Positions 6,059 to 32,915 of a stretch of DNA of 64,000 bases are shown piece after piece. The notes under the pieces are model-generated. The model was not told the DNA's origin and did not search any database. It saw nothing but the letters and a program-made list of their open reading frames with translations. The translations under genes were made by a program, and so were the position numbers. Positions within the stretch are counted from its first letter, which is position 1. Every line of letters begins with the position of its first letter. The stretch is from an uncultured Candidatus Saccharibacteria bacterium (lineage in GTDB: Bacteria > Patescibacteriota > Dojkabacteria > J137). The stretch is from contig CAZLOI010000001.1 of NCBI GenBank assembly GCA_964561155.1, positions 302,759-366,758 on the forward strand, read 5' to 3'.

Positions 6059-6059
6059 A

Positions 6060-6698: not shown

Positions 6699-6699
6699 T

Positions 6700-7260: not shown

Positions 7261-7262
7261 AT

Positions 7263-7622
7263 ATGCAAGACGACTCACTATGCGGTATTGTTGGATGTGA
7301 TATTAATCAAGGAGAGAACTATCTTCTTAACTTGGATAATATTGTTCAGACAGGTCTAACTGTTTTGTTCTCTTTGATAATTATCTATGGAATATTCATG
7401 ATTATCAAAGCTGTTGTTAAGATTATTTCTAGTGAAGGAGATGAAGGGAAGCTTGAGTCTGGATTGAAAAGTATTCGTGGAGTTTATTACGGTGTTGTCA
7501 TTATATTCGTAGGATTAATAGGATTGGTAATAATCTTTGCTTTGTTTAATGTAACAGAGCTTCCTGATAATGTAGATCTTCCAGGAGGAGATGGCGGAGT
7601 AATAACCGACCCTTTCAACTAG
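7263..7622 (+). CDS. Two-TM hairpin protein, paralog 5
   Basis: TM1 (LTVLFSLIIIYGIFMII), the loop KIISSEGDEGKLESGLKSIRG, then TM2. It is about 50% identical to ORF 7714 across the hairpin. Confidence 0.65.
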   Translation: MQDDSLCGIVGCDINQGENYLLNLDNIVQTGLTVLFSLIIIYGIFMIIKAVVKIISSEGDEGKLESGLKSIRGVYYGVVIIFVGLIGLVIIFALFNVTELPDNVDLPGGDGGVITDPFN

Positions 7623-7713
7623 AGTAAATCTTCTAGCCTTATTGTCTTTTGGTCTTGTATCTTCTAATAATTTCTAATAGAATAGGTTAAATACATATTA
7701 AGAAAACTATATT

Positions 7714-8166
7714 ATGAAGAAATTCTTCGCAACGCTTTTTGTAATGTTCTTTGCTGTTACACCATTTATAGCTCCTGTAGCACATGGTCAAAATCTAATC
7801 TGTAGAGTATTTCCATTCATTGAACAAATTAAGGCTTTTGGAGTAGATGCTTTATGTGGAGGATTAACTTCAGAGGGACCAATCGATTCTGCTAGATCAC
7901 TAGTTCAAGTAGGATTAAACTTAGTATTTGTTGGTATTATCATCTTAGCAATCTTTATTATTGTTAAGGCTGCTATCAACTATATTAGATCAGAAGGAGA
8001 CGAGGACAAGATCAAGAGTGCAAACAAATCTATCAAAGCTGTATTTACTGGTATCATTGCATTATTCGTAGGAATTATCGGTATTATATTAGTTCTTGCT
8101 ATATTCAATGCTACAGAAGTAGTTCCAAATGAACTACCAGATGAGTTAGACGTACTTAATGAATAG
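7714..8166 (+). CDS. Secreted two-TM hairpin protein, paralog 6
   Basis: It has a signal peptide (…APVAHGQ) and two Cys in the N-terminal ectodomain, then TM1, the loop NYIRSEGDEDKIKSANKSIKA, and TM2. The acidic C-terminal tail matches that of ORF 7263. Confidence 0.7.
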   Translation: MKKFFATLFVMFFAVTPFIAPVAHGQNLICRVFPFIEQIKAFGVDALCGGLTSEGPIDSARSLVQVGLNLVFVGIIILAIFIIVKAAINYIRSEGDEDKIKSANKSIKAVFTGIIALFVGIIGIILVLAIFNATEVVPNELPDELDVLNE

Positions 8167-8172
8167 TAATGA

Positions 8173-8886
8173 ATGAAGATTTGTGCATTTCTAATAATAG
8201 GAATCATATTCCAATCTCTTACAAGTCCTGTTGTCGCACAAACACAGGACTTTGATTTTTCAGGCAATAATCCTGACTCCTACCAGTGCTTCGATGGAAG
8301 CGGACAACCAGATACCACATCAAATATTGTAAAAGATGAGTTACGGGGATTCTTTTTCTGCGATACGAATAATAATGGCTTCTATAATGCTGGTGAAGAA
8401 CAAGCAGTTTTAAGGCCTCCAAGGCTTCAGCAAATTGAAGTCTGGTTCGTAAGAATCATTTATGTGGTTTGGGCACTAGTTGGAGCATACTCGTTCTATC
8501 TTCTAGTAGTTCTTGGATATCAGGTAATGATCTCTCGAGGAGACCCAACATCCCTACCAAAGATTAGACAAAGAATTATTAACTACATGATTGGTTTTGC
8601 TTTAGTATTTCTAGCTATTCCAATATTAGATACGTTCTTTAGACTGCTTGGTATAAATAAAACAGTCAGCTGTTACGATGTTCAGATGCCTGGGTTCCAA
8701 TTCTTCTTTACAACACTATGTAGCGGTACAGATCCTTGTTCCTTCACTGCAGCTCAGCTAGCAGATGGTATTGTATGTCCGATCAGGAATGAAAGGAGAG
8801 CATGTGATACTGGTGCCCAAGGAGAATTTGAAATCTTCCTTTGTGACCCAGAAGCCCAGATTTGGACAAGTATAGGAACTCAATAG
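8173..8886 (+). CDS. Secreted Cys-rich protein with a central two-TM hairpin, paralog 7 (largest ectodomains)
   Basis: It has a signal peptide (…SPVVAQT) and an N-terminal ectodomain with two Cys, then TM1, the loop MISRGDPTSLPKIRQR, and TM2. The C-terminal ectodomain carries 7 Cys (SCYDVQMPG…LCSGTDPCSF…VCPIRNERRACDTG…FLCDPE). Confidence 0.6.
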   Translation: MKICAFLIIGIIFQSLTSPVVAQTQDFDFSGNNPDSYQCFDGSGQPDTTSNIVKDELRGFFFCDTNNNGFYNAGEEQAVLRPPRLQQIEVWFVRIIYVVWALVGAYSFYLLVVLGYQVMISRGDPTSLPKIRQRIINYMIGFALVFLAIPILDTFFRLLGINKTVSCYDVQMPGFQFFFTTLCSGTDPCSFTAAQLADGIVCPIRNERRACDTGAQGEFEIFLCDPEAQIWTSIGTQ

Positions 8887-8887
8887 T

Positions 8888-10390
8888 ATGAACCTAAAAC
8901 TAAAGTCATATAAAATTAATGACGATGTGTACATCGGTGACTATTCTGTATTAAAAACTTCAGACTCATTCATCGCATCCCTTAGAAACCTAGATACCTC
9001 AATATCAGATTCATCAACACATACAATTGAACTAGATATCAATGGCACTATCTGCACGATTACAAAACTTGATGAAACAATAACTGTAATATTCAATGAT
9101 GCTTCATACACTTCTTTAAACGAACTATTCCAGACTGAATTTAAAACTAACTTTAATTCAAATACTTGGAAAGAGCATTTCCTAGATATAAATGAATCAG
9201 GTATTTCTGATGTTGCTTCCTTTAATACATTCTTGTCTGGATTAACAAAGGAAGTTGTTGATACCAATGCACCAAAAAAAGAATTAGATAACCTAATATT
9301 ACAAAGCTTGGAGTCCGCAACAGATGAAAACAAGAAAGCATTGCAACGCTTTCAGGAGTTAACAGCAAAGATTTATACATCTGAAGAAAAAGTGGATGTA
9401 TACAACAACTATCAAAGTATTGTTAAAGCAAAGAAGGAGGAAAAGGATTCAATCCTGAGAGAGAAGGAACGATTGGTACAAGTACTATCTAGTTCAAAAG
9501 AGTTAATCGAATCAAAGGCGAGACTGGAGAATGAAGTTAACGTTGTATTGGAAGGGTCTGATCCTGAAGTACTTAAGAATACAATCACACAAGTTAAAGA
9601 TACTAGAATGAATCATCTTGTAAACTACATGCAAGAAGTGAAAGGTCAACACAAGTACGATGCTGAAGAGAAGGAAAGAGATTTGATGGTACCAAAAGCT
9701 TTTATAGTTATTCTACTAGTTCAATCGCTGGTATCCATTTCTTTGTTCTTTGTAACAGGGGATGTAATAGCGTTTATGTATTTGATTCTTGGTTGGATCC
9801 TAGCAATAGGTGGTGGGATTCTATTTCAAATCTATGCATACGATACAATAGCAGCTCAATTTGATAGCTCAGATGAATCTCAAGATACAGCTCCAAAGCC
9901 ACGAAGAGAATTCACGCTTAAGGTAGATGAGACACAAGACAAAGATTTAATAAAACATGCGTGGGTTGAAGCACTAAGAAGAGATCTACAAGAAGTTGTG
10001 AGTTCATTAAACCAAAGACTTGGCTCTATGACATACGAGGAACTTCAAGATAGGATGAAAGAGTTAGAAACAAAGGGAGTATTATTAGATGAAGAGATAA
10101 AAAAGCTTGATGGAGAGAAGATCGATCAAGATGATTACTATAAATTTAGAAGAGAATTAGATATCTATAGTATCGAAAGAGAGAATCTGCTGGTCAATTT
10201 GGAAGGAAAAGTAGACAATGGACTAATAGAGAATATAAAATATAGTATTAGCCGAATTTCTGACGCCAAGAAAGTTTCAGAAACAAAGCAAATAAAGTTG
10301 CCCTTTATTATTTTTAACCTTAAGGAAAAAGTAGCTTGGATAAAAGATTTACAGGTACAAAACAGTACTCAAGTATTGTTCTTCGAATAA
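8888..10390 (+). CDS. Coiled-coil membrane protein (500 aa) with a central 2-TM hairpin flanked by cytoplasmic coiled-coil domains
   Basis: Hydrophobic helices sit at about aa 272-320 (AFIVILLVQSLVSISLFFVTG / FMYLILGWILAIGGGILFQIYAY). The flanks are rich in heptad-like E/K/L repeats. No catalytic motif was found. Confidence 0.55.
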   Translation: MNLKLKSYKINDDVYIGDYSVLKTSDSFIASLRNLDTSISDSSTHTIELDINGTICTITKLDETITVIFNDASYTSLNELFQTEFKTNFNSNTWKEHFLDINESGISDVASFNTFLSGLTKEVVDTNAPKKELDNLILQSLESATDENKKALQRFQELTAKIYTSEEKVDVYNNYQSIVKAKKEEKDSILREKERLVQVLSSSKELIESKARLENEVNVVLEGSDPEVLKNTITQVKDTRMNHLVNYMQEVKGQHKYDAEEKERDLMVPKAFIVILLVQSLVSISLFFVTGDVIAFMYLILGWILAIGGGILFQIYAYDTIAAQFDSSDESQDTAPKPRREFTLKVDETQDKDLIKHAWVEALRRDLQEVVSSLNQRLGSMTYEELQDRMKELETKGVLLDEEIKKLDGEKIDQDDYYKFRRELDIYSIERENLLVNLEGKVDNGLIENIKYSISRISDAKKVSETKQIKLPFIIFNLKEKVAWIKDLQVQNSTQVLFFE

Positions 10391-12156
10391 CAGCAATATT
10401 CCTCATTGCTATCATTTCAGTTAGCCCTGTATGGGCTAGAAGTTCTACAGAAATTGGACAAGACATTATCAACAAACAAAGAGAGATTGAAGAGAACGAA
10501 CGAAGGCTAGCTGAATCTGCTGCTAATAGACAAAGATACGAAGCAGATGCAGCAAGTCTTCAGGAAGGTGTACCTCAACTAGAGGCTCAAATTAAACAAC
10601 TCGAAGAAGAGTTGAATGGTATTAAGCTTGAAATTAGTATTCTTGAACAGGAACAAGCTCTAAAGGAACTGGAAAGAGAACGAACTCAGTTTAATCAGAA
10701 TCAAACGATTAAGGGTTCATACATGGACTGGAAGAGTACAAGTCATGATGTGCGAATGTTTGTAGATGAAGATGTAGAGTTTAATAGGATACAGCAGTAT
10801 CAATCTGCAATTGCGGGAAACAATAAAGTAACTATAGATAACCTAACAGGGGAATTGATAAAGATAGATGGTCAAATGTCAGTATTAAGTCAAAAGAAAG
10901 CTGACTTAGAAGTTAAAGAAGCAGAAGTTCAGGAACAAAAAAGACAACTAGAAGAAACATTGGCTCGGTTAAGATGGGGAATAAGCTACGAAGCAGGAAA
11001 TCTTGCGGCTATAGATAACTCGATTAAGCAAGCTAGACAAGATATCGATCTACTATCCGCAGAGCAACAAGCTGCAATGGCAAGAGAGCAGGAGATCTTA
11101 CAGAATAACCCGGGTGTTGAAAACTCAGCTGGTTGCGATGGAGCAGTAGCTGGAAGCAATAGTTTCTACTTCTGTGGAAATGGACGAGATTTGTATCAAG
11201 GACACGGTGTAGGTATGAGTCAATATGGAGCTAAAGGTGCTGCAGAGCAGGGTGCGAGTGCTGTTTCGATAGTAGAGTTCTATTATCCTGGAGCGGTTGT
11301 TACAACAATAGCTGAACCTGCAGAAATCTCAATTAAATACTGCCAAGGAAACCCAGGTTTAGCTCCCTATCAAGAAAACTGTTATTACGGAGGTAACTAC
11401 TACGGTCCTGTTATAACTGAAAGAATTAGCTTTATCGACTACCTCGGTGGATTGGGTGAAATGCCATACAGTTGGCCAGTTGAGGCAAGAAAAGCTCAGA
11501 TGATTGCAGCTAGAACATACGCACTTAAAAGAACTAATAACGGAGATCCTAATTACCCAATCTGCCTAACATCATACTGTCAGGTATCGTATGTAAAAAA
11601 TGGTCAGACTCATGAAAGACAGTTAGCGATAGATACTCAAAACCAAGTTCTAATGTATGGCGGAGTTTTAATTGATGCTTTGTATTCTGCAGACAATAGT
11701 CAGAATAACGGTACAGCAGATTACGATACAAGATTTCAAAACGTATATGGTCAAGCAAACGGTAATTATCCATACCTAAGATCAGTAAATGATCAAGGTT
11801 GGGCATGGAATTCAAGAATGTACTATTTCCAGTATTGTGGTTCACATGCATGCGGACTATGGCCATGGAAAACAAGGACGTATTCATATGCAGAATTTGA
11901 TAATTTCTTAACGTGGGTTGGAAATAACTTGTATTGGGAGTTCGGTACTGCAAAAAATGCAGTAGGAAATACAAATTATATTAACTTCGAACGAGATGCA
12001 TCTGGTAGAATTAAGAAGATTTTAATATATGGTACAAATGGATCATATACTCTAGGAGGATGGTGGTTCAAGAACGCATGGATATCTTGGGTAGCATCGA
12101 CTGGAACATATGACTATATATACAGTCAGACTTTAAACGTAGTACAGAATAACTAA
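10336..12156 (+). CDS. Secreted/anchored coiled-coil protein with a C-terminal SpoIID/LytB-type cell-wall lytic domain
   Basis: N-terminal hydrophobic signal/anchor (ITAIFLIAIISVSPVWA), ~230 aa of coiled coil, then the SpoIID-family hallmarks GHGVGMSQYGAKGAA and ALYSADNSQNNGTADYDTRFQNVYG...YPYLRSVND. The annotated start overlaps the preceding ORF by 55 nt, so the true start may be downstream. Confidence 0.75.
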   Translation: MDKRFTGTKQYSSIVLRITAIFLIAIISVSPVWARSSTEIGQDIINKQREIEENERRLAESAANRQRYEADAASLQEGVPQLEAQIKQLEEELNGIKLEISILEQEQALKELERERTQFNQNQTIKGSYMDWKSTSHDVRMFVDEDVEFNRIQQYQSAIAGNNKVTIDNLTGELIKIDGQMSVLSQKKADLEVKEAEVQEQKRQLEETLARLRWGISYEAGNLAAIDNSIKQARQDIDLLSAEQQAAMAREQEILQNNPGVENSAGCDGAVAGSNSFYFCGNGRDLYQGHGVGMSQYGAKGAAEQGASAVSIVEFYYPGAVVTTIAEPAEISIKYCQGNPGLAPYQENCYYGGNYYGPVITERISFIDYLGGLGEMPYSWPVEARKAQMIAARTYALKRTNNGDPNYPICLTSYCQVSYVKNGQTHERQLAIDTQNQVLMYGGVLIDALYSADNSQNNGTADYDTRFQNVYGQANGNYPYLRSVNDQGWAWNSRMYYFQYCGSHACGLWPWKTRTYSYAEFDNFLTWVGNNLYWEFGTAKNAVGNTNYINFERDASGRIKKILIYGTNGSYTLGGWWFKNAWISWVASTGTYDYIYSQTLNVVQNN

Positions 12157-12794
12157 TGAATCCAAATACACCACAAGACAACAAGAAACTTGAGATGATC
12201 AAAAAGATGGATCAGATAGTGCCAAAAGCATCTGGAGGTTTCTTTGGTTCTGTTCAATACAGACCTAATATGAGTTTCGAAGGCCAGAACAGGAACGAGA
12301 AGGTCTATATTATGGCAAGAAGACACTGGTTAACAAATGTAGGGTGGATTATAAATAATGTCATTTATATAATGCTACCGCTTCTAGTTGGATTACTATT
12401 TAATGTATTCGATCCAAAGCTACCACCAGTAAATGGTCAAGTTTTCTCAGTTCTTGTACTTGGATATTATTCATTGGTATTTACAAATATCTTTAAGAAC
12501 TTTGTAGATTGGTATTTTGATATATATTTTGTAACTAACGAAAGAGTTATGGATGTTATCTTTAAGCCATTCGCTTCGTATCAAATTGAAGAGATTCCAT
12601 TGAATAGTATTGAAAGTGTTAGAGAGAAGACTCCTGGAGTTTTGGCTGCAATATTCAATTTTGGAAACATTACAATTACAACTGAAGCCCATGACAGATC
12701 AATGGTATTCCCTTATATTTCAAAACCTACAAAGGTTCGCGATATTATTTCAGACTTAGCATTTGTTGCTCGAACATTTAACAATGGAAATTAA
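12156..12794 (+). CDS. Membrane protein with 2 TM helices and a bacterial PH (bPH_2/YdbS-like, DUF304) domain
   Basis: Two hydrophobic helices (LTNVGWIINNVIYIMLPLLVGLLF; VFSVLVLGYYSLVFTNIF) are followed by DWYFDIYFVTNERVMDVIFKPFASYQIEEIPLNSIESV, which is typical of membrane-flanked bPH domains. Start codon overlaps the stop of the previous gene (ATGA). Confidence 0.55.
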   Translation: MNPNTPQDNKKLEMIKKMDQIVPKASGGFFGSVQYRPNMSFEGQNRNEKVYIMARRHWLTNVGWIINNVIYIMLPLLVGLLFNVFDPKLPPVNGQVFSVLVLGYYSLVFTNIFKNFVDWYFDIYFVTNERVMDVIFKPFASYQIEEIPLNSIESVREKTPGVLAAIFNFGNITITTEAHDRSMVFPYISKPTKVRDIISDLAFVARTFNNGN

Positions 12795-13002
12795 CACATC
12801 AACAGTATTCAGTTTCTTAAAAATATTTGCGATTGTAATCGCATTATTTCATTTGCTTGCTGGGTTATATGTTACTAGGCAAGTAACAAGAATGAATAAA
12901 ATAGTTAAGACTAGAAATGGACCTTTCATATTATTAGTAGCCCTAGCATACATAATCGTACTGCTGTTAGTACTTCTACTAATAATCTCGATACAGGTTT
13001 GA
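12763..13002 (+). CDS. Small 2-TM membrane protein (79 aa)
   Basis: Two strongly hydrophobic helices; overlaps the end of the bPH gene, suggesting operon coupling. Confidence 0.4.
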   Translation: MLLEHLTMEINTSTVFSFLKIFAIVIALFHLLAGLYVTRQVTRMNKIVKTRNGPFILLVALAYIIVLLLVLLLIISIQV

Positions 13003-13031
13003 GAAATTTTCAAAATTCTATATACTAAGGT

Positions 13032-15794
13032 ATGGCAATTAAAGCAGACTTTATAACAGGTAAGCAATCGTTCGGCAACTGGGCAGGGGTTTACGCCTTT
13101 GTACCTGAATCTGGAGAGAGCAAGGAAATGTTCGTTTCTATACGAATATCCGTAGAGAGTGACGAATTTAATTTAGAAAATGCAGGAAAACTTCTTTTAG
13201 ATGAACTTCAAGGTATATATTTCTCAGACAAAAAAGCATATTCAGATCAGGTGAATAGACTTGAGAATGCATTGTGGAAGATGAAGGGAAAGATGGACTA
13301 CATTCTTTCGAAGGAACAATCCTTAATGGAGAAAGGTTTAGATATAGAACTTGCTGTGTGTGTTTATGATGATGTCTTTGCATATACTGCGGTTATAGGT
13401 GAAAGCAAGATAAAGATCTATAGAGAAGAAAAGTTAATAGATATTTCAGACGCATTGTCAGACGCTGCTAATTCAGGTTTCTTTAAAACAGGAAGCCTAG
13501 AATTGGATCCAGAAGACAGAATATTCCTAATCACATCTAAAGCTGCTAGAGAATTCTCTGACAAAGAGATTGAAACAGGAGCTAGGTTACTTGATTTAGG
13601 TAGATTAAGAGCAAGCTATCCTGATTCATCAGAAGGTACTGCTGCTGTAATGATATACAAGGAAGGAGCTACTGCATTAGCTGTTGAAGAGAATATACAA
13701 GCTAATGATCAAGGTATGCAAGCTACGCAATCAGTGGATGGAGCATCAGAAGATAGGAAAATGGATGGTGGCACATATGGAGATCAGAATATTTCTTCAG
13801 GGGCAACAGAAGCTGTATCTCAAACAGTATCTGAAGTAACAACAATAGCTATGATGGGAGAAAAGGCTAAGCAGTTCTCAAGAGTTGCAAAGACTAATCT
13901 TGTTAAAGCAGGTAACTTTACAATAGGAAAACTAAAAGTATTTAGAAACAAAGTAGAGGATTATAGAAACAAGAGAAATGGAGTAGCAATGAATGATGAG
14001 TCAATTAACGATGAAGAAGTAATGTCAAATGATATGGGAGATGAGATTGAACCAGTTGCTCAGAGAGTAAGCAATACTGTTGCACCACAACTTTCAGATT
14101 CAAGATTCTATGACGAGTCAGAAGACGAGATGGAACAACCAGTTGTAGCACCTGTTCAGAATATGGAAACACCAGTGCAAGACTTTGAACCAGAATACGA
14201 TACAGAAGGCAATTTGATTCCACAGTACAAGCCATTCAAGGATGAAGAAGAAGATCTTTCTGTTAACGAAGTTAATTCGGACACAGAGGAAATATACGAT
14301 GATGTTTACGAAGAAGTGCAAGATGAACCAGTAGCTCAATTTGGAGCTAGTACTATGAGACAAAGCCAAAAGGCTCCACAAGGCAGTAGATTCGATAGTG
14401 TAAAGGGAAGCTTTAATAATGTAAACAAAGAGAAATTATCAGGAATAGTTGCCAAGGCTTTAGACTTACTAAAGAGACTTGGAAGTATGCTTTTGGAATT
14501 AACTCTTTGGTTAATTGAGTTATTCAAGAAAGAAATACTAGGTGTTGGTGAGAATAGACGCGATAGATTGTCTAGAGCAAAGAGAAGAAGAAGAAACAGA
14601 ATCATATTAGTTGCTGTAGTAATTATCTTGTTCTTAATAATAAGTAATTCGATTAGAACAGCACAGGATGCTAGATTCCAACAGGAACTATTAGATACAG
14701 CAAGAACAAAGGTATCTGAATTCCAGAATACACATACTTCACTAGATGCAAACATTCAAACAGCAAAGGCTTCGGGCGATGTAGCAATTCAGAATCTAAT
14801 TGCAGACTTTGATAGATTGAACGCAGAAGTTAATGTACAAAAGAGAGAAGGTTTATTAGAAGAAGAGTTCACAACAATTCAGAACGATATTCAATTCTCT
14901 AAAGATGAGCTACTAGATATTATCGCTATCCTAACACCTCAGGTATTGGTAGATGTTGGTAGAAGCTACCCAGACGCAAATCTTGCAGACATTGAATACT
15001 CAAATGGAGGTATCTTTATTAGTGACCAAGGAAGAAACGTTATCTACAGAGTAGGTACAGCATCTTTAAATGGTGTTGCTCAGAGCTTTGTTACTGGATT
15101 AACTCAACCATATGCTCTAGTTAGAAATGTAGATGGAGACATTGTTTTCTATGACAACGATACTACTTCAGCACTTGGTATTGTAGATTATGAATCTGCG
15201 GAAGTTTCTAGAATGCCAGGTTTAACTCCAAGTAGTATAGGAAGAGTTACTGAATCTGCGCTATATACAGGAAATGATTCTTTATATGAAGTTCGAAATT
15301 CTACTACTCAGATCTTTAAAAGAGACAAGAGTGGTTCTGGATATGTAAATGGCGGAGCAACTCAATCAGGAGACTTTAATTCAAACTGGAGAGTAGATTC
15401 TGATTTTGCTAACGCAGTAGACATAGCAGCACCTTACGAAATCTATATGCTGATCAAGGGTCAAGGTATCAAGAGATATTTTGCTAGAGAAGCAAACACA
15501 CTAACATCTGATCTATTCAGTAACATATCTCAAACAGATCTAGCTGCTGTACAGAATGCTAACTCGATGGATGCAGTCGATTCATTCGTAGCTGTTGGAG
15601 ATGCAGCAAACAAGAGAGTGCTACTATTTACAATAGACGATACTCCTCAGAAAGGATTAACTCTTTTCAAGCAATTCGTATATCGAGGATCTGAAAATGT
15701 ATTCAACGATCTAGATGAAGTTGTAATCGTTCCAAGCGAAAGTTCAATCTACGTTCTTGATAACCTAAAGGTTATCAAACTACCACTTCAATAA
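13032..15794 (+). CDS. Large single-pass membrane protein (920 aa): cytoplasmic N-domain (possibly PP2C-like), acidic linker, TM, extracytoplasmic beta-propeller-like C-domain
   Basis: The TM lies at about aa 525-545 (RIILVAVVIILFLIISNSI) after a basic RRRRNR stop-transfer. The C-terminal 380 aa carry repeated blade-like motifs (GIFISDQGRNVIYRV, DIVFYDND, SLYEVRNS, NKRVLLFTIDD, SSIYVLDNL). The N-terminal 230 aa (…ELAVCVYDDVFAYTAVIGESKIKIY…DRIFLITSKAAREFSD) weakly recall the PP2C/SpoIIE fold. Confidence 0.55.
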   Translation: MAIKADFITGKQSFGNWAGVYAFVPESGESKEMFVSIRISVESDEFNLENAGKLLLDELQGIYFSDKKAYSDQVNRLENALWKMKGKMDYILSKEQSLMEKGLDIELAVCVYDDVFAYTAVIGESKIKIYREEKLIDISDALSDAANSGFFKTGSLELDPEDRIFLITSKAAREFSDKEIETGARLLDLGRLRASYPDSSEGTAAVMIYKEGATALAVEENIQANDQGMQATQSVDGASEDRKMDGGTYGDQNISSGATEAVSQTVSEVTTIAMMGEKAKQFSRVAKTNLVKAGNFTIGKLKVFRNKVEDYRNKRNGVAMNDESINDEEVMSNDMGDEIEPVAQRVSNTVAPQLSDSRFYDESEDEMEQPVVAPVQNMETPVQDFEPEYDTEGNLIPQYKPFKDEEEDLSVNEVNSDTEEIYDDVYEEVQDEPVAQFGASTMRQSQKAPQGSRFDSVKGSFNNVNKEKLSGIVAKALDLLKRLGSMLLELTLWLIELFKKEILGVGENRRDRLSRAKRRRRNRIILVAVVIILFLIISNSIRTAQDARFQQELLDTARTKVSEFQNTHTSLDANIQTAKASGDVAIQNLIADFDRLNAEVNVQKREGLLEEEFTTIQNDIQFSKDELLDIIAILTPQVLVDVGRSYPDANLADIEYSNGGIFISDQGRNVIYRVGTASLNGVAQSFVTGLTQPYALVRNVDGDIVFYDNDTTSALGIVDYESAEVSRMPGLTPSSIGRVTESALYTGNDSLYEVRNSTTQIFKRDKSGSGYVNGGATQSGDFNSNWRVDSDFANAVDIAAPYEIYMLIKGQGIKRYFAREANTLTSDLFSNISQTDLAAVQNANSMDAVDSFVAVGDAANKRVLLFTIDDTPQKGLTLFKQFVYRGSENVFNDLDEVVIVPSESSIYVLDNLKVIKLPLQ

Positions 15795-15864
15795 GGCAGG
15801 CTAGCCAAATAGCGTATTCAATACCCTTTCTCTATGGTATTATATTGCTATTTAAATCAAAACA

Positions 15865-16320
15865 TTGAAAATTCTTTCATCAAATAAAAAAGCATACTAT
15901 GACTATGAGGTCCTCGATAAATATGAGGCAGGAATTTCATTGCTTGGTTGGGAAGTAAAATCAATTAAAAATACGAACTTCAATATAACAAATGGCTACA
16001 TAGTACCAAGGGACAATGAACTTCTAATGGTTGGAATGAGGGTAGGTTTATTGCAAGGTTCCTTTGAACAAGACAAGAACAGGGAAACTAGGGATAGAAA
16101 GCTTTTATTAAAGAAATCCGAGATCTTTACTATAATGCACAAGGTTAAGACTAAAGGACTAACAGTAGTTCCTTTGGAAGTATATTTAAATGATCGAGGT
16201 TTAATCAAAGTAGATATAGCGATTGTAAAAGGTAAGAAAAAATATCAGAAAAAGGATAAGATAAAGGAGAGGGATCAAATTAGATCAATCGAAATAGATA
16301 GAAAATCATACAGTATATGA
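15865..16320 (+). CDS. smpB: SsrA-binding protein SmpB
   Basis: NKKAYYDYEVLDKYEAGISLLGWEVKSIK…ELLMVGMRV…DRKLLLKKSEI…KGLTVVPLEVYLNDRGLIKVDIAIVKGKKKYQKKDK matches the SmpB family pattern. No tmRNA (ssrA) is visible next to it. Confidence 0.85.
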   Translation: MKILSSNKKAYYDYEVLDKYEAGISLLGWEVKSIKNTNFNITNGYIVPRDNELLMVGMRVGLLQGSFEQDKNRETRDRKLLLKKSEIFTIMHKVKTKGLTVVPLEVYLNDRGLIKVDIAIVKGKKKYQKKDKIKERDQIRSIEIDRKSYSI

Positions 16321-16883
16321 ACGACACACATCAAAGCCAAGCCATAAAGGATCTAATAATATATCTAGAGAAATTTGGATTTAAATATCTAGGACCTGGA
16401 GAAAACGGAGATGTATTATTCACAGCTCCAAATGGACAAGCAGTTTCTGGAGAAATAGCATACAGATTTGTAAAGACTCAGTTAGAAGATCCAGCAAAGA
16501 CATCTACAGGAGGTACTGAAGCGATGCCTGCAATGCCTAATGTAATACCGACTAACCTAGATTCAGGATTTGATTCAAAGATAGAAGTAGAGAAAAGTCT
16601 AGATGAAGCAAACAAGATTGAAAAGGCGAAGGAGCAAGCATCAGAAGATGCAAATTCTTTAAGCGATTTGAAAGTAAAGAACTCTTCACCAAGAATGAAG
16701 ATTGGAAATACAACAATTCCTCTTCCATTCGGAGATGGCTTTCTACCAAAATCTTTTAGACCAGACGACACAGATAGTATTCAAGATTTCATATCTAAGA
16801 AGGCTTCTGCAAGTCATAGTGATCCAGCCGCATGGCTTAGAGTACTATGGGAAAAGTTTTTGAAGGAATTGTCATCGAAATAA
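16317..16883 (+). CDS. Hypothetical protein (188 aa)
   Basis: Its ORF overlaps the smpB stop and sits directly upstream of the VirB4-like ATPase; no motif was recognised. Confidence 0.45.
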   Translation: MNDTHQSQAIKDLIIYLEKFGFKYLGPGENGDVLFTAPNGQAVSGEIAYRFVKTQLEDPAKTSTGGTEAMPAMPNVIPTNLDSGFDSKIEVEKSLDEANKIEKAKEQASEDANSLSDLKVKNSSPRMKIGNTTIPLPFGDGFLPKSFRPDDTDSIQDFISKKASASHSDPAAWLRVLWEKFLKELSSK

Positions 16884-16910
16884 ATATTTTTTTCCTGTAA
16901 AATAAGTCGT

Positions 16911-19358
16911 ATGTTTAGCTCAGCCGTAATCGGAAATATTCTTATTGTATTCTTAATACTAGTTCTAGCCGGTGTTATTATCTTCAGCTTGTATTCCTGG
17001 CTCTTGACCGAATTAAAAGAAAGAGTCTTAATGGACAAGTCTTTAAACCTAGTATTCTACGAAGTTAGACTAGCAAGAAACAGCGAAGTAGAGATAAAGG
17101 CTATGGAACAGTTGTTCTCAGGACTAACTGGATTCTCTGAAGATCTTAAAGGAATGAAAGGGTTCATAGGAGCTAGAACTTTTGTAAGTTTTGAACTCGT
17201 CGCATATTATCAAAGTATTAGATTCTACGTAGTTTGTCCTAAAAAGATATCAAGTGTTGTTGATAGATTAATCAACGGAACATACCCTAGTGCTGAGATA
17301 ATGAAAGTTAAAGAGTATAACTTGTTCCCTGATCAGGGAAGTGTTTCATACGCTAGTTTGGAAGTAGACAAGGATTGGAAGATACCATTTCAAACATATG
17401 AAGAACTACCAGTAGATAGTTTGGCTACCCTTACAGATGTAATGAGTAAGCTAGGACCAGGTGAAAGTGCTGCTTTCCAGATTGTAATTGCTCCAGCAGG
17501 AGGAGACTGGATTAAATCATCAAAGGAATATGCAAAGAAGATTAGAGAAGATGCGCAGCCAAAGACTGCAAAGGAAGGAGAGCCTGCACCTAAACCTGCA
17601 AAACAGAAGGTGCCAGATGAGACTCTTTCATTAATTGAACGTAAAGCTGAGAAGAATGGTTTCTATACAGATCTTCGTGTTGTAGTTTGTTCTCCGGACA
17701 AGTTTTCTGCAGACAATCATATGACCAATATATTAAGTACCTTCGATCAGTTCTCAAAGATTGGAGGAAGCAAGCTTAAGAAGACCAAAGACAAGAACAA
17801 ACTAAAGACGATATCTAGAGATTTTATATACAGGCTGCCAAGGAACAAGATGGTTTTGAATGCAACGGAGCTTGCAACACTGTACCATTTCCCAAGCAAG
17901 AGTATTCAGGCTCCACATATTAAATGGTTGTTGTCCAAGAAGCTACCTGCTCCTGACTTCACTACAAATCAGTGGGAGAAGGACTATATGTATATTGGAA
18001 AGAATACTTTCAGAGGATCGGAGAAAGAGATATTCTTAAAACCTGATTCAAGACTTAGACACTTCTATATAATCGGACAAACTGGTTCTGGTAAGTCTGG
18101 TTTCATGCTTTCCATGATGGTTAGAGATATTAAGATGGGACATGGTTGTGCATATATAGACCCACACGGATCAGATGCAGAGAAGATATTGCAGCAGATT
18201 CCACCAGAGAGAATAGAGGATGTGATTGTTTTTGATCCATCAGATATCGAAAGACCTATGGGTCTTAATATGTTGGAATTTAAAACTCCTGCACAGAAGA
18301 CTTTGGTTACCAATGAGATGCTTAATATCTTTGATAGTTTGTATAACCTAAAGGTTACTGGAGGACCTATGTTCGAGCAGTACTTTAGATATGGAATCAT
18401 GCTTTTAACAGAGGATGAGGAATCGGGATCAACTCTTCTAGAGATACCTAAGCTATTCGCGGATGAAGGCTACAGAAACTATAAACTATCTAAGTGTAAG
18501 GATCAGGAAGTTATAGACTTCTGGAGAAAGCAGGCAGAGGCAGCCGGAGGAGAAGCTTCCCTTAAGAATATTGTTCCATACGTTGTTTCAAAGCTTGCTC
18601 CTTTCTTAACTAACGCATATCTAAGACCTATTGTTGCTCAACAGAAATCTACTTTAGATTTCAGAGAGATTATGGACAACAAGAAGATTCTAATTGCAAA
18701 ACTTTCTAAAGGACGTATTGGAGAGATGAATGCAAATCTTCTAGGTATGATCTTAATTGGTAAGTTACTTGTTGGAGCGCTAGAGAGAGACGAGATTCCA
18801 GAGGATGACCGTATTCCTTTCTATCTATACATCGACGAGTTCCAGAACTTCTTAACAGATGGTATCCAGATTATTCTTTCTGAGGCTAGAAAATACAAGC
18901 TTTCCCTAACCATCGCTCACCAGTTCCTTGGTCAACTAACAAGACAGGGTGGAGATACAAAGATTAAGGATGCTGTTTTTGGTAACGTTGGTAACAAGGC
19001 TATTTTCAGAGTTGGAGAGGAGGATTCACCGTTCCTAAGGAAAGTATTGGATGGAGAATTGGAGGAATCAGATCTACAACAGATTGAAAACTTAATGGCT
19101 TTTGTAAAGATTCAGGTTGATGGGAAACCAACTCCTGCTTTTACGCTCACAGCGAGATATGGGGAGTCTCCATACGATATGATGTCAGAACCCAACCCAC
19201 AGCTTTCTAACCTCATTAAGCAGGTCTCTAGGCTCAAATATGGCAAGGATGCATCTCTTGTAGAGAATGAAGTTAAGTTAAGGGGTAGTTTCATTAAAGA
19301 GAAGACAGAGGAAACCAAGAAACCAGGAGGAATGTTTGGTGGGTTCCCAGGATTTTAA
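16911..19358 (+). CDS. T4SS-type P-loop ATPase, VirB4/TrbE/CagE-like (alternatively VirD4/TraG-like), with an N-terminal TM anchor
   Basis: An N-terminal 28-aa hydrophobic helix is followed by a Walker A at about 48% of the length (HFYIIGQTGSGKSG) and a Walker B with downstream Gln about 245 aa later (PFYLYIDEFQNFL…EARKYKLSLTIAHQFLGQL). The size (815 aa) and the Walker A position fit VirB4 better than VirD4. This is a motif-memory assignment; no search was run. Confidence 0.65.
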   Translation: MFSSAVIGNILIVFLILVLAGVIIFSLYSWLLTELKERVLMDKSLNLVFYEVRLARNSEVEIKAMEQLFSGLTGFSEDLKGMKGFIGARTFVSFELVAYYQSIRFYVVCPKKISSVVDRLINGTYPSAEIMKVKEYNLFPDQGSVSYASLEVDKDWKIPFQTYEELPVDSLATLTDVMSKLGPGESAAFQIVIAPAGGDWIKSSKEYAKKIREDAQPKTAKEGEPAPKPAKQKVPDETLSLIERKAEKNGFYTDLRVVVCSPDKFSADNHMTNILSTFDQFSKIGGSKLKKTKDKNKLKTISRDFIYRLPRNKMVLNATELATLYHFPSKSIQAPHIKWLLSKKLPAPDFTTNQWEKDYMYIGKNTFRGSEKEIFLKPDSRLRHFYIIGQTGSGKSGFMLSMMVRDIKMGHGCAYIDPHGSDAEKILQQIPPERIEDVIVFDPSDIERPMGLNMLEFKTPAQKTLVTNEMLNIFDSLYNLKVTGGPMFEQYFRYGIMLLTEDEESGSTLLEIPKLFADEGYRNYKLSKCKDQEVIDFWRKQAEAAGGEASLKNIVPYVVSKLAPFLTNAYLRPIVAQQKSTLDFREIMDNKKILIAKLSKGRIGEMNANLLGMILIGKLLVGALERDEIPEDDRIPFYLYIDEFQNFLTDGIQIILSEARKYKLSLTIAHQFLGQLTRQGGDTKIKDAVFGNVGNKAIFRVGEEDSPFLRKVLDGELEESDLQQIENLMAFVKIQVDGKPTPAFTLTARYGESPYDMMSEPNPQLSNLIKQVSRLKYGKDASLVENEVKLRGSFIKEKTEETKKPGGMFGGFPGF

Positions 19359-19374
19359 TACTTAATTCATACAT

Positions 19375-19950
19375 ATGAACCCCCCGCTAGAATCAACACA
19401 AGAGTTTGATGTTCGGAAAGAACATGAAGACTACAAGAAGTTTTTGCGAGAAGTTGTCTTGGACGCTATTAACAATAGGAAAAAGATTGATATGAGTTTT
19501 GATGAAAAGTTAAGTGAAGAGGATACGAATGAAAGAAAGTCAAAAGCAAGCAGCTTAAAGAACTTGGCTGATGAAGATTTTATTAATTTTGGTGATAGTT
19601 ATTCCTACCAGCCTCATCTTGTTTGTGTAAGAGATTCGCATAACTATGCAGTGCTTATAAAAATAGCAGTTGATATATTGCTTGAAAAAGGTGCTATTGA
19701 CACAAAAGAATTGAGAGATAGTATGGAATACAATCTTGAACATGAGTTCGAACATCATGTACAAGCTTTAGGTAAAGTTAAATTAGAATACTGTCTAGAG
19801 TTCTTTGAGGATATTAAGACACGTCGGTTTAGTATAAGGCCAGGAGTTAGACTGCTCGGGGTGACTACGCTAGGAGTGTATAAGGATATCTTAACTGCAC
19901 CATCAGAGCTTTCCCACGGTGATAAGGAGATAGGGGAAACCATAGGTTAA
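19375..19950 (+). CDS. Hypothetical protein (191 aa)
   Basis: Last ORF before the tRNA/integrase junction; acidic, with no recognisable motif. Confidence 0.45.
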   Translation: MNPPLESTQEFDVRKEHEDYKKFLREVVLDAINNRKKIDMSFDEKLSEEDTNERKSKASSLKNLADEDFINFGDSYSYQPHLVCVRDSHNYAVLIKIAVDILLEKGAIDTKELRDSMEYNLEHEFEHHVQALGKVKLEYCLEFFEDIKTRRFSIRPGVRLLGVTTLGVYKDILTAPSELSHGDKEIGETIG

Positions 19951-19957
19951 TGTTACA

Positions 19958-20031
19958 TAGGCCCAGGTGGACTCGAACCACCGACCCCAGCTTTATAAGA
20001 ACTGTGCTCTAACCACCTGAGCTATGGGCCT
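19958..20031 (-). tRNA. tRNA-Ile with anticodon UAU (decodes AUA)
   Basis: Reverse complement folds as AGGCCCA/TGGGCCT acceptor, D arm GCTC-AGGTGGTTA-GAGC, anticodon stem CAGTT/AGCTG, loop CUUAUAA, T arm GGTGG-TTCGAGT-CCACC, discriminator A; no encoded CCA. The D arm is identical to the ITS tRNA-Ile(GAU). Confidence 0.75.
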
Positions 20032-20082
20032 TTGTCCCGAAATTATATCAAATGGAAGGGGAATATTACATTAAGAAATATA

Positions 20083-20937
20083 TCAGATCTCCTTTAAACC
20101 TCTAAACTCTTTCTCTTTGTATTTCTTTGATAGTAGTTCTAGGTATCTTTCAGTTGTTCCTGGGGATTTGTGTCCTACGATGTGAGATAGGTCACTGATT
20201 GGTACACCGTTAGATAGTTGGAATACGATGAATGCATTCCTGAAATCATTTACAGATGCACTGGATACCTTTGCTCTCTGGAAATATCTGGATAGAGAAG
20301 CTCTAATGTTTCTAATCTCCATTCTTCGATTCTTCTTTGTACAGAACACATACTTCTCTGGATTATTCTCAACAATATATGCCTTAAGTATTCCGTAGAT
20401 CTTGTCACACATAGGAATATCTCTTGCTGGTATGGAATCCTGCTGATTGATGTGAATATTAGGATTCTTACGATCAAAAGTTATATCCAGAACCTGCAGA
20501 TTCGCAAGCTCAGATATCCTAATACCAGTTTGAATCAGTAATTCAAGCATCGTATAGATCTTATCGTTCTCCTTACAAACCTCTCTAATCTTATTAATCT
20601 CTAAAAGACTTAAAGTTCTTGGTTTAGACTGAATATATTTAGGGTGAACAATCTTACCTGAGAAGTCTTCTTCGATGATCTTTCTTTCAGCGAGGAACTT
20701 AACAAAGGTTCGGTATGTATTAATTTTTCTTGCAACGGTCTTAATGGCACTATAGGATTTTTTAATTTCTCGGTATATTTCGTTGTAGTCATCAAGCGAA
20801 AGGGTAACTACTTCTTTGTTTCCGGAGATACTGATTAACTGCTTAATATCAGCAATGTACGCGATGAGGGTTGACTTACTCTTCTTCTTTCTCTTAAGAT
20901 ATTCTTGGAACTGATTTAATGCTGTTTGGTTGTTCAT
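20083..20937 (-). CDS. Tyrosine site-specific recombinase (phage-integrase/Xer family)
   Basis: It has an N-terminal SAM-like core-binding domain. The catalytic motifs are box I RISELANL, …HIVGHKSPGTTERYLEL (the H-x-x-G-H…Y nucleophile region), and RNAFIVFQLSNGVPISDL. It lies immediately 5' of tRNA-Ile(UAU) on the same strand. Confidence 0.85.
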   Translation of the reverse strand: MNNQTALNQFQEYLKRKKKSKSTLIAYIADIKQLISISGNKEVVTLSLDDYNEIYREIKKSYSAIKTVARKINTYRTFVKFLAERKIIEEDFSGKIVHPKYIQSKPRTLSLLEINKIREVCKENDKIYTMLELLIQTGIRISELANLQVLDITFDRKNPNIHINQQDSIPARDIPMCDKIYGILKAYIVENNPEKYVFCTKKNRRMEIRNIRASLSRYFQRAKVSSASVNDFRNAFIVFQLSNGVPISDLSHIVGHKSPGTTERYLELLSKKYKEKEFRGLKEI

Positions 20938-20978: not shown

Positions 20979-21356
20979 ATGCGGTCAACAACAAAACAAG
21001 AGAATTCTGGGTCATTCATTGGAACCGCTTTGCTGGTAATGCTTTCTATGGTTCTAATAATTAACACTTTACGTGTTGTAGTGAACGGAAGAAATAATTA
21101 TTCCACATATTTGGAAGAACAAAAGAGTTTGGAGAAGATTCAGGATAGAAATTCAGATCTTCAAGAAGAGAAACAGTATGTAACGAGTGAAGAATATAAG
21201 TTAATTCTTTTAAGAGATGCTGCAAGGCTTGCACAGGGAGGTGAAACCCTTTATCAGATTAAGAGTTCTCCGGTATACCTAGATGAGGAGGTTACGTTAC
21301 TTGATATTACCGAGAAGGACAACTTCTTTGATTGGTGGTTAAAGTTAATATTCTAG
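20979..21356 (+). CDS. Septum-formation initiator family protein (FtsB/DivIC-like): TM plus coiled coil
   Basis: An N-terminal TM (IGTALLVMLSMVLIINTL) and a coiled coil are followed by EEYKLILLRDAARLAQGGETLYQI, which resembles the DivIC/FtsB C-terminal signature. Confidence 0.5.
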   Translation: MRSTTKQENSGSFIGTALLVMLSMVLIINTLRVVVNGRNNYSTYLEEQKSLEKIQDRNSDLQEEKQYVTSEEYKLILLRDAARLAQGGETLYQIKSSPVYLDEEVTLLDITEKDNFFDWWLKLIF

Positions 21357-21430: not shown

Positions 21431-21505
<75 letters not shown>

Positions 21506-21599: not shown

Positions 21600-21673
21600 G
21601 TCAGAGTAGCTCAGTTGGCTAGAGCACAGGATTCATAAACCTGAGGTCGGCAGTTCGATCCTGCCCTCTGATA
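21600..21673 (+). tRNA. tRNA with CAU anticodon (elongator Met or lysidine-type Ile2)
   Basis: Acceptor GTCAGAG/CTCTGAT (G1:U72), D arm GCTC-AGTTGGCTA-GAGC, anticodon loop UUCAUAA, T arm GGCAG-TTCGATC-CTGCC; no encoded CCA. Confidence 0.8.
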
Positions 21674-21726: not shown

Positions 21727-24108
21727 ATGGACAAAACTAAAACACCAGAGAAGAAGAAAGATATTGAGAAAGTAAGGGCAGAAATGTCTAGGAAAGTAAT
21801 GGAGATGAATAAGAAGAATGGTTCGAAAGGATCAACTGTGTTCTCATTTGGATTTGGAAGAAATCCACTAATTGTTTTAGTAGTCTCAATATTATTAATA
21901 TTCTTTATTCTTCAACTCTTCAATAGAGGTGTTGGAACTGGAAATATTGGTATTACAGATACTATCAATGGAATTAAGGAGAACAGATTCTCTCAATTCA
22001 TAGTTCAGAATGATGGAACTGTTCAGGTATATGGAAAGCAGTACTATGTTGTTGCTGACGCAGATACATTGGCTGACTCTCTAAAGGATTCAACTGAATA
22101 CAAGTTTACTGATTCAAGAGTTGGAGGTATTGAAGAGATTACTCTAGATAGACTTATAGAGGAATTAAACGACAACGATCTAATTGCACAGTTACGAAGT
22201 GCTTTAAGTAGAGGTGGAAGCGGTATATCGGAACTTGTTATAGCAGATAACTTTATCCTAGCTTTGAGAAGCGGTGCTCAGTTAGACTTCATTGTTAGAG
22301 GCGCTACAGAAGCAGATATAGAGGCAAAGCTACAGACAAAGAACCTATCTTTGGCTACAATCCCTCAGAAGGTTAGTAAATTAAAGTATCTAGCAAAGAG
22401 TGTAGATAATTCATTGTTTGTTGATACTCTAAATAGCAATGCATTCAGTAATGTAATCTATCTAGAAGAAAATGGACTTGCTTTAGCTAAGCTTAAGACA
22501 AGTACTACTTTCAGGGCAGCAATAGATTGGACTCCAGTTATTTCAACATTCACAACGCTACTACAGCAGGAAGATATTAATCTAAGTGCTACTAACTTCG
22601 AAATCATTACTCAAAATATAAGTGAAGGTATTTCATTTAGCGATATATTAACTCTACTAACTCTTGTTGGATTCGTTGTAATAGCATTCATGCTGTTCAG
22701 AGGTGTTCAGGGAGGAGGAGGAATGGGTATTGCTCAATTTGGTCAGAGTAAGGCAAAGCTTTTCTTTGGATCAAAGATTGATACTACATTTAAGGATGTA
22801 GCTGGTATTGATGAAGCTAGAGATGAGTTGAATGAAGTTGTAGATTTCTTAAGAAATCCTGCAAAGTTTAGAAAGCTAGGTGCAAGAATACCAAAGGGAA
22901 TCCTTATGGTTGGAGCTCCTGGAACTGGAAAAACATTGCTTGCAAGAGCTATTGCTGGAGAAGCAGGTGTTCCATTCTTTCATACATCAGGTTCAGAATT
23001 CGAAGAGATGCTTGTTGGAGCAGGTGCTTCTAGAGTTAGAGATCTATTTACCAAAGCAAAGAAAGCAGCTCCTGCATTAATCTTTATTGATGAAATAGAT
23101 GCTGTTGCAAGAAAGAGAGGTACAAAGGTTCAATCTGGAACTACAGAACAGACGTTGAATCAGATATTGGTTGAGATGGATGGTTTTGAAAAGAACGTTA
23201 ATGTAATAGTATTGGCGGCAACTAACAGACCTGATGTATTAGACCCAGCTATCTTAAGGCCTGGAAGATTCGACAGACAAATTAGAATTGAGCTTCCTGA
23301 TATGCAGGGTAGAAAAGAAATTCTTGCTGTACACGGAGCTAATAAGCCATTTGATGAAACTGTTGATTTGGAAAGAGTAGCTAAGAGAACTGTAGGGTTC
23401 ACTGGAGCAGATCTTGAGAATATCTTAAACGAAGCAGCCATTATTGCTGCAAGAGAAGGAAAGACAAAGGTTTCAGATGATGATATTGATGAAGCTATAT
23501 CTAAGGTTGTATTAGGCCCTGCAAAGAAGTCTAGAAAGAGAACAGAGGCAGAACTTAGCTTGGTTGCATACCACGAAGCAGGACACGCTGTCGTAGCAAA
23601 GATGATTCCTGAGGCTACTCCTGTTGATAGGATTTCTATCATTTCAAGAGGTTCATCTGGAGGAGTAACTATGTTCCTTCCTGAAAAGGATGAATATATT
23701 GTTTCAAAGAGAAAGCTTCTTGCTGAGATTGCAGTATCATTAGGAGGAAGAGCTGCGGAGGAGATTGCATTAGATGATATCTCAACAGGAGCATCTAGCG
23801 ATATTGAAAAGGCTACAAACGTTGCAAAGAGAATGATTCAAAGATTTGGTATGAGTGAAAAGATGGGATTGGTACAGTATGGAGACTTTGAAGAGAATGA
23901 CTATCTTGGATATGCATACTCAAACTCAAAGGAATATTCAGACAAGACAGCGCAGGATATCGATGCAGAAGTTAAGTTGCTGGTAACAGAAGCTTATGAA
24001 AGAGCAAAGAAGATTCTTAACGACAACAGAGAAAAATTGGATTCTGTAGCTAAGGAGTTATTGGAAAAGGAGGTTCTTGGAAAGGAAGACTTCGATAGAT
24101 TGTTCTAG
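21727..24108 (+). CDS. ftsH: ATP-dependent zinc metalloprotease FtsH with an extended ~300-aa extracytoplasmic domain
   Basis: It has two TMs flanking a long ectodomain. The AAA motifs are [27 protein letters not shown], Walker [11 protein letters not shown] and the SRH region. The zinc site is HEAGHAVVA. Confidence 0.95.
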
Positions 24109-32841: not shown

Positions 32842-32915
32842 AGGCGATTAGCTCAGGTGGTTAGAGCGCTCCTCTGATAAGGGAGAGGTCCCAAGTTCGA
32901 GTCTTGGATCGCCTA
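32842..32915 (+). tRNA. tRNA-Ile (GAU) in 16S-23S spacer
   Basis: Acceptor AGGCGAT/ATCGCCT, anticodon loop CUGAUAA, T loop TTCGAGT. Confidence 0.9.

Follow-up and report, generated by a model that had tools for sequence, protein, structure and literature searches.

A tRNA-Ile(UAU) gene in conserved gene order beside a Xer-like recombinase in Patescibacteria

Decoding of the isoleucine codon AUA by a tRNA whose CAU anticodon is converted to lysidine-AU by TilS is held to be essential to bacteria and almost universal among them. The described bacteria that encode a UAU anticodon belong to two kinds of system. In Mycoplasma mobile, AUA is read by a dedicated tRNA-Ile2(UAU) (PMC3575796), and tilS, which in Mycoplasma is positioned upstream of ftsH (PMC1635315), is absent from this usual place. 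In Bifidobacterium and Neorickettsia, a tRNA-Ile3(UAU) is found in place of tRNA-Ile2(CAU), together with an isoleucyl-tRNA synthetase (IleRS) of the eukaryotic type (PMC3575796; PMC8450103); the tRNAscan-SE 2.0 paper reports tRNA-Ile3(UAU) replacing tRNA-Ile2 in 17 genomes, which come from Bifidobacterium, Mycoplasma and Neorickettsia (PMC8450103). Here, we analyze a stretch of 64,000 nt, referred to as the window (contig CAZLOI010000001.1, positions 302,759 to 366,758), from an uncultured bacterium deposited as Candidatus Saccharibacteria and placed by GTDB in Patescibacteriota, Dojkabacteria. It carries a tRNA-Ile(UAU) gene directly next to a gene encoding a tyrosine recombinase. We consider it probable that this tRNA gene is chromosomal and vertically inherited, that it stands in ancient synteny with a Xer-type recombinase and that the window holds no integrated element. 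A literature search on tRNA-Ile(UAU) or TilS in Patescibacteria, the candidate phyla radiation (CPR), returned nothing relevant.

ARAGORN detects ten tRNAs in the window, including a tRNA-Ile(tat) gene (coordinates of all features are collected in Table 1), and this gene scores 65.3 bits with the Rfam tRNA model (RF00005), the gathering score being 29. Folded manually, it forms a canonical cloverleaf with the acceptor stem AGGCCCA/TGGGCCT, the D stem GCTC/GAGC, an anticodon stem CAGTT/AGCTG containing one T-G pair, the T stem GGTGG/CCACC and the discriminator A73. The anticodon loop is 7 nt long (CTTATAA) and presents the TAT anticodon along with U33 and A37. The UAU anticodon, which a preliminary description had read directly from the DNA, is therefore borne out by the ARAGORN call, the Rfam score and the cloverleaf alike. 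The same description pointed to a D arm in common with the tRNA-Ile(GAU) of the rRNA spacer, and rightly: the 17 nt of this arm (GCTCAGGTGGTTAGAGC) are identical in both genes and are matched by none of the other window tRNAs. The two tRNAs also have in common the AGGC/GCCT pairs 1-4, including C4-G69, as well as A73, the T loop and A37/A38. Given these common features, the UAU tRNA most likely has isoleucine identity and is predicted to be charged by IleRS.

We compared the gene with its counterparts in 80 related loci (designated by L-numbers), which were taken from species-representative genomes by means of aligned recombinase homologs. All of these are Patescibacteria metagenome-assembled genomes labeled Dojka-, Gottesman-, Woese- or Shapirobacteria, WWE3 and similar. 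In about half of the 80 loci a tRNA-Ile(tat) gene is present within 6 kb. Altogether, 94 tRNA-Ile(TAT) genes, representing 74 distinct sequences, were gathered from Patescibacteria relatives. Over the 21 pairs of the consensus cloverleaf, 99.9% of the pair cells are standard, and 19 of these pairs show compensatory changes. The positions C32-U33-U34-A35-U36-A37 are invariant in the 74 distinct sequences, the anticodon itself having been the criterion of selection. In turn, a metagenome scan with an anticodon-arm pattern that allowed either C or T at position 34 matched 47 loci; all 47 have T34 and none has the C34 variant of this tRNA backbone. The covariation points to a functional, vertically evolving gene family, and an encoded tRNA-Ile(UAU) is the usual state of this CPR lineage rather than an oddity of one genome. 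The view that such a tRNA is uncommon in bacteria, expressed in the preliminary description, holds for bacteria overall, with the 17 genomes mentioned above, but not within this lineage. As for codon usage, ATA makes up 317 of the 938 isoleucine codons (34%) in the confidently annotated open reading frames (ORFs) of the window, or 28 per 1000 codons. AUA is thus a major codon in this AT-rich genome, which therefore requires an efficient AUA-reading tRNA.

The tRNA seems to be furnished with a promoter of its own. A putative extended -10 element (TGATATAAT) lies 10 nt 5' of tRNA position 1, inside a conserved block at 20033-20056 (CATTTGATATAATTTCGGGAC on the minus strand). The same motif precedes the tRNA or the tRNA leader in L001, L085, L086, L087 and L150, while the remaining spacer varies. 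A sigma-70 scan did not flag the proposed promoter because a -35 match is absent; from the perfect TGnTATAAT and its conservation we infer that the element may nevertheless serve the tRNA.

The question which tRNA reads AUA in this organism also concerns the tRNAs with a CAU anticodon, two of which are encoded in the window, both of them detected by ARAGORN and Rfam. Criteria that distinguish the initiator, Met and Ile2 types of CAU tRNA have been given by Silva et al. (PMC1635315). The upstream gene is of the initiator type. The downstream one, which the preliminary description left as either elongator Met or Ile2, lacks C4-G69 and C5-G68 and is of the same type as the non-initiator CAU tRNAs of relatives; its acceptor pairs (Table 1) settle the alternative, assigning it to the Met type and not to Ile2. 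As a separate observation, position 32 of this elongator tRNA-Met is a U, and its anticodon loop is closed by what looks like an A31xA39 mismatch (GGATTCATAAACC); both features are kept in many relatives. The 106 CAU tRNAs examined from the first set of related loci likewise all belong to the initiator or Met type, and none has G3/A3 or the combination of C4-G69 with C5-G68. The two tRNA-Met genes occupy the site upstream of ftsH in the window, where neither tilS nor hpt is found. There is no Ile2-type CAU tRNA in the window and no tilS-like ORF among the window ORFs scanned against Pfam. A tblastn search for tilS in 1.26 Mb of related loci gave no match, which is weak evidence, given unverified E. 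coli and B. subtilis query sequences and a biased sampling of loci.

From these data, we lean slightly towards tRNA-Ile(UAU) being the sole decoder of AUA in a TilS-independent system, as in M. mobile or Bifidobacterium. A quite conceivable alternative, to which we give somewhat less credence, is that the tRNA is supplementary and that the canonical pair of TilS and tRNA-Ile2(CAU) is encoded outside the window, a situation that the model of Taniguchi et al. (2013) calls the ‘redundant stage’. It counts for this alternative, and against a sole decoder, that, as regards tilS and a third CAU tRNA, the analysis covered 64 kb of the genome. Bacteria with both systems have been described (PMC3575796), and tilS is nearly universal in bacteria (PMC1635315, PMC8007984). 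The supplementary role is, however, at odds with the initiator or Met type of every CAU tRNA in the window and in the first set of related loci, with the very high AUA usage and with the failure to find a C34 form of the tRNA-Ile(UAU) backbone; the lack of tilS before ftsH and in the tblastn search points the same way, the latter weakly.

The tRNA belongs to the same kind as the M. mobile and the Bifidobacterium/Neorickettsia systems and, by analogy, would work like them. With M. mobile, it has in common an encoded UAU anticodon in an AUA-dedicated tRNA-Ile, an A37 available for N6-threonylcarbamoylation (t6A) and the absence of tilS upstream of ftsH. Yet M. mobile is one species, whereas here we deal with a class-level lineage in which AUA is a major isoleucine codon. 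Similarly, Bifidobacterium and Neorickettsia are bacteria bearing tRNA-Ile(UAU), but the phylum considered here is Patescibacteria. The canonical TilS system fulfills the same task, that is, reading AUA as isoleucine without reading AUG; in contrast, the window encodes the anticodon as TAT. Decoding steps can be proposed on the basis of earlier work (PMC3575796, PMC1635315, PMC8450103). The tRNA would be transcribed from its own extended -10 promoter and accepted by IleRS through the identity set in common with tRNA-Ile(GAU), namely A73, C4-G69, the D arm and A37/A38. U34 would then pair directly with the A of AUA, where most bacteria use the lysidine-modified CAU tRNA instead, and reading of AUG would be limited by a feature of U34, by the tRNA body or by the ribosome, as in M. 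mobile. Such a system calls for an IleRS adapted to the UAU anticodon, through an Arg865-type (Trp-to-Arg) change in the Zn-binding domain or by being of the IleRS2 type; the window encodes no ileS.

The exceptions to lysidine-dependent decoding known so far come from a few genera; here, an encoded tRNA-Ile(UAU) appears fixed across a broad CPR lineage with heavy AUA use. If tilS is truly missing, a large share of bacterial diversity would read AUA in the ‘eukaryotic/M. mobile’ way. This would bear on AUA/AUG discrimination with U34, on the evolution of IleRS and on the standing of TilS as a drug target presumed to be universal.

The recombinase ORF shares its strand with the tRNA and stops 51 nt before it; hence, the recombinase is located on the tRNA 5' side and the tRNA 3' end faces a small gene, orf191, and a TraG-like gene, an arrangement already recognized in the preliminary description. 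The protein contains the Phage_integrase domain (PF00589, 1.8e-23) and an N-terminal SAM-like core-binding domain (PF02899/PF13495), as identified by Pfam. Both its family membership and its adjacency to the tRNA stand as first described, but it is not a phage integrase and should be viewed as Xer-type instead. The two-domain layout and the size fit a Xer-type protein of about 290 aa. Full-length matches were obtained with the NCBIfam models of XerD (1.1e-32), archaeal XerA (7.8e-31) and XerC (4.6e-29), and a PDB search at E<=1e-5 yielded no relatives other than two structures of XerA and one of E. coli XerD. In pairwise HMMER alignments with XerD and XerA, the box I Arg (TGIRISEL), the second Arg, the His and the Tyr are aligned.

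Two findings from the same comparisons speak against an ordinary Xer protein. The scores of 113.5, 107.6 and 101.7 bits miss the NCBIfam cutoffs of XerD, XerA and XerC (329.6, 220 and 335, respectively), and the pairwise HMMER alignments place an Asn at the first catalytic His of XerD and no Lys at the Lys of GKGxK. Because of the low scores, the Asn for His and the unaligned Lys, an orthodox Xer function is no more than putative. By similarity, the recombinase is Xer-like, yet falls outside the XerC, XerD and XerA equivalog families; it is most probably a divergent Xer. Compared with the Xer recombinases, including XerD, archaeal XerA and the single-Xer proteins XerS and XerH, it agrees in size, in its two domains, in full-length similarity and in the R...R-H...Y positions, and differs in the features just listed and in being always near tRNA genes. 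We also observed that the whole recombinase family has an invariant Asn-Asp in place of the first catalytic His (NDLRHTF, versus HxLRH of Xer proteins) and SxPxRxVPLN where XerD and XerA have GKGxKxRxVPL.

We found 136 homologs of the recombinase at E<=1e-10, with a length of 285-295 aa among the matches listed; every source name given among the 120 homologs listed is a Patescibacteria-group lineage. The protein is conserved across Microgenomates-type Patescibacteria. Since it is widespread in the lineage and has a fixed gene neighborhood, the gene looks like a housekeeping one. The recombinase would presumably act in chromosome dimer resolution, and its closeness to the tRNA is an old synteny. 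Beside the recombinase gene, the place of the dif site in the case of xerS and xerH, we detected no dif candidate: the window and relatives have no conserved palindrome in common, and there is no skew switch. Cumulative GC skew climbs steadily through the locus, and for this reason no replication terminus is apparent there.

The gene order around the tRNA is strongly conserved. In L001 and L004, whose recombinases are 82% and 48% identical to that of the window, it consists of genes encoding SmpB, a 186-aa ORF, the TraG-like protein (DUF8128), tRNA-Ile(UAU), the recombinase, ORF125, tRNA-fMet, tRNA-Met and FtsH, with PolA further downstream. The synteny extends to about 80 further genomes, over recombinase identities from 99% down to about 35%. 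Of the 89 sequences with any match, counting the loci and the window, 43 contain the TraG-like gene and 29 contain FtsH. The TraG-like gene, which is convergent with the recombinase gene, adjoins it in about 40 related loci; of the 47 loci containing the two genes, 37 have the tRNA between them.

A tyrosine recombinase adjoining a tRNA is also what would be expected of an attachment site, and the preliminary description cautiously raised a mobile element, noting that the idea should fall if no repeated att-like sequence were found and the locus were syntenic in relatives. Under this explanation, the tRNA would be the attachment site of an integrated or decayed element, the recombinase its integrase, and ORF191 or the type IV secretion system (T4SS)-like locus its cargo. 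Some details agree with it: orf191, located directly 3' of the tRNA, is missing from the close relative L085 as well as from L001 and L086; relatives contain partial tRNA-Ile(UAU) copies beginning or stopping at the anticodon loop; and the T stem of the window tRNA-Ile(UAU) is unlike the CGCAG/CTGCG common to L001, L004, L086 and L087. Against it, a search of the window for att-like copies of the tRNA 3' half (24-mer, up to 3 mismatches) found none, and blastn-short against the window, with the entire tRNA and with the L001-type tRNA as queries, gave only other tRNA genes and chance 10-mers. A scan of IMG/VR for the tRNA 3' half as a phage attP gave 14 matches; all belonged to tRNA arrays of phages or to pieces of other tRNAs, and no relevant one was among them. 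GC content is uniform across the tRNA/recombinase region. The gene order on both flanks is kept in relatives, where the block is not absent and only the 576-nt orf191 varies, and the Xer-like recombinase has the same neighbors across the class. The T4SS-like locus, in turn, contains smpB and is conserved in relatives, and is therefore part of the core chromosome and not a conjugative element. ORF191 is a variable resident and not foreign cargo, as homologs occur in the same slot in L087, L088 and L150 and, with 33% identity, in the same neighborhood in L046. On the two grounds named in the preliminary description, the mobile-element explanation is close to refuted for this window, and we regard it as very improbable. 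The recombinase and the tRNA do not form an integrase/att pair. For annotation, this means that the recombinase is no marker of a prophage or an island, that the neighboring CAU tRNA is a tRNA-Met and that the T4SS-like locus belongs to the core chromosome.

Vertical inheritance in old synteny has to be reconciled with an evident instability of the slot, and three findings among the relatives tell against it. First, a 135-nt block of promoter and tRNA (19949-20083 in the window, 1376-1510 in L085) is 92.6% identical in L085 but inverted there. The recombinase of L085 is 99% identical at the protein level and its flanks show 92-95% DNA identity; in L085, 2 nt separate the 3' end of the tRNA from the stop codon of the recombinase gene. 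Second, orf191 comes and goes among close relatives. Third, the partial tRNA copies break at the anticodon loop. In many relatives more distant than L085, the last of these form nested arrangements: an older copy is split in the anticodon loop at positions 35-37, with its 5' and 3' fragments enclosing an intact tRNA-Ile(UAU) (Table 1); such breaks occur in lineages with 34-82% recombinase identity. The outer acceptor strands of the nested copies are complementary to each other and unlike the inner strands. In addition, 12 of 91 tRNA-Ile(UAU) genes, versus 1 of 162 other tRNAs, have inverted repeats that continue the acceptor stem through the discriminator for another 8-16 bp. Such repeats are often seen in the clade of the window itself. 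The window, L085 and L087 have a clean, promoter-fused form of the tRNA, and neither nested copies nor acceptor-extending repeats occur in the window.

Anticodon-loop breaks in tRNA genes are scars that integrases are known to leave, and the sublocation classes of integrases include crossover in the anticodon loop. The partial copies in relatives start or stop in that loop like att duplications of tRNA-targeting integrases; in contrast, the inserts are only about 100-250 nt long and hold an intact tRNA and no genes, and the recombinase nearby is a conserved Xer-type one. For these slot features, several origins are conceivable: scars of integrase action, a template switch at the palindrome of the acceptor, a small tRNA cassette, or a helix used in RNA processing. 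We know of no description of a self-replacing tRNA cassette or of an anticodon-loop recombination system.

One could suppose that the tRNA cassette is a substrate of site-specific recombination by the neighboring recombinase, through inversion of the block or insertion of the cassette into the anticodon loop, by analogy to an invertible switch or an integron-like attI. The inverted block of L085 would fit this, as would the orientations in the 37 slot loci, where 25 tRNAs point the same way as the TraG-like gene and 12 the same way as the recombinase, the group with at least 82% recombinase identity including examples of each. The nested intact-in-broken copies, the excess of acceptor-extending repeats and the constant vicinity of the recombinase gene would also be accommodated. 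However, the edges of the block have no conserved inverted repeat or core site; the best candidate, in AT-rich DNA, is an inverted repeat that matches imperfectly, at 10/12 positions (TTAATGTTACAT, 19947-19958; ATATTACATTAA, 20063-20074). Lineages whose tRNAs are nearly identical have flanking repeats of wholly different sequence, which speaks against a recognized terminal site. Template switching at an acceptor-stem palindrome or ordinary integrase scars could account for the pattern, and the window lacks both nested copies and acceptor-extending repeats. The inversion itself is an evolutionary change and not observed switching, given a DNA divergence of 5-8% between the window and L085. Site-specific recombination of the cassette by the neighboring enzyme therefore seems unlikely to us. 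We are equally doubtful that the slot, in which the tRNA has flipped orientation repeatedly, is, in more general terms, a recombination module, either as a small self-replacing tRNA cassette or as a site of anticodon-loop recombination, although the inversion, the indel of orf191 and the nested copies keep a weak link between the tRNA and recombination alive. A chromosomal, vertically inherited tRNA beside a Xer-type recombinase is the reading that we retain.

In distant lineages, the outer tRNA fragments contain inserted GC-rich palindromes of the form CCTGCC(N)GGCAGG, which follow GGTTA/GGTA at D-loop position 22/23 (Table 1). Similar palindromes occur at other intergenic spots of relatives; in the window there are none outside the 23S rRNA.

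Table 1. Positions of the features of the tRNA-Ile(UAU) locus in the window and of the slot features in related loci (L-numbers)
Feature	Position	Strand	Basis or remark
tRNA-Ile(UAU), AUA decoder, without encoded CCA	19958..20031	-	ARAGORN tRNA-Ile(tat); Rfam tRNA model
Putative extended -10 promoter of tRNA-Ile(UAU)	20042..20050	-	Read from sequence
Xer-type tyrosine recombinase, 284 aa	20083..20937	-	Pfam Phage_integrase and SAM-like N-terminal domain
tRNA-Ile(GAU), rRNA spacer	32842..32915	+	ARAGORN; Rfam; sequence comparison with tRNA-Ile(UAU)
Initiator tRNA-fMet(CAU), CCA encoded	21431..21505	+	ARAGORN, Rfam; C1xA72 mismatch, A11-T24, G12-C23
Elongator tRNA-Met(CAU)	21600..21673	+	ARAGORN, Rfam; C3-G70, A4-U69, G5-C68
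FtsH, conserved downstream neighbor	21727..24108	+	Pfam Peptidase_M41, AAA; synteny
ORF125, small membrane protein with coiled coil, possibly FtsB/DivIC-like	20979..21356	+	Translation
ORF191, uncharacterized 191-aa protein with conserved HExxH	19375..19950	+	Variable occupant between TraG-like gene and tRNA 3' end
TraG/VirD4-like ATPase (DUF8128), last gene of the T4SS-like ‘apparatus’ locus	16911..19358	+	Pfam TraG-D_C, DUF87; DUF8128 in relatives
T4SS-like ‘apparatus’ locus with embedded smpB	5699-19358		Two T4SS_pilin-domain proteins, SpoIID-domain protein, TraG/VirD4-like DUF8128 ATPase, several family-less ORFs
Nested tRNA copies in relatives	L001 10940-11260; L004 14660-14840; L006 6880-7130; L086 3320-3630; L102 7390-7620; L074 7480-7720; L044 3500-3730; L066 2650-3030; L150 4440-4650; L046; L135		Intact tRNA-Ile(UAU) within a broken copy
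Acceptor-extending inverted repeats in relatives	L102 7443-7540; L127; L110; L129; L104; L006; L001; L004; L135; L086; L150
GC-rich palindromes in relatives	L006 6904; L046 6132; L086 3375; L150 ~4590; L127 (downstream copy); also L035 9827, L093 6549, L121 5134

As for the other neighbors, orf125 is divergent from the recombinase gene and is kept beside it in 14 loci and among the closer relatives. Its product combines a membrane helix at the N-terminus with a coiled coil; a weak Pfam match to DivIC (septum formation initiator, E 0.017) is the sole hint of its function. ORF191 could be assigned to no family in Pfam, NCBIfam, PADLOC or PHROG, and for its AlphaFold2 (AF2) model, of high quality (pLDDT 92), Foldseek found nothing significant in either the PDB or the BFVD library. 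The ORF191 family, with proteins of ~190 aa, comprises 80 cluster representatives, in which E124 and H127 are invariant and H123 nearly so; where the gene is present, it is always in the slot after the TraG-like gene. Just after groEL, a gene at 1407-1979 (+) encodes a 190-aa DUF4145 protein with a weak PADLOC match to PD-T7-4 (E 3.7e-4).

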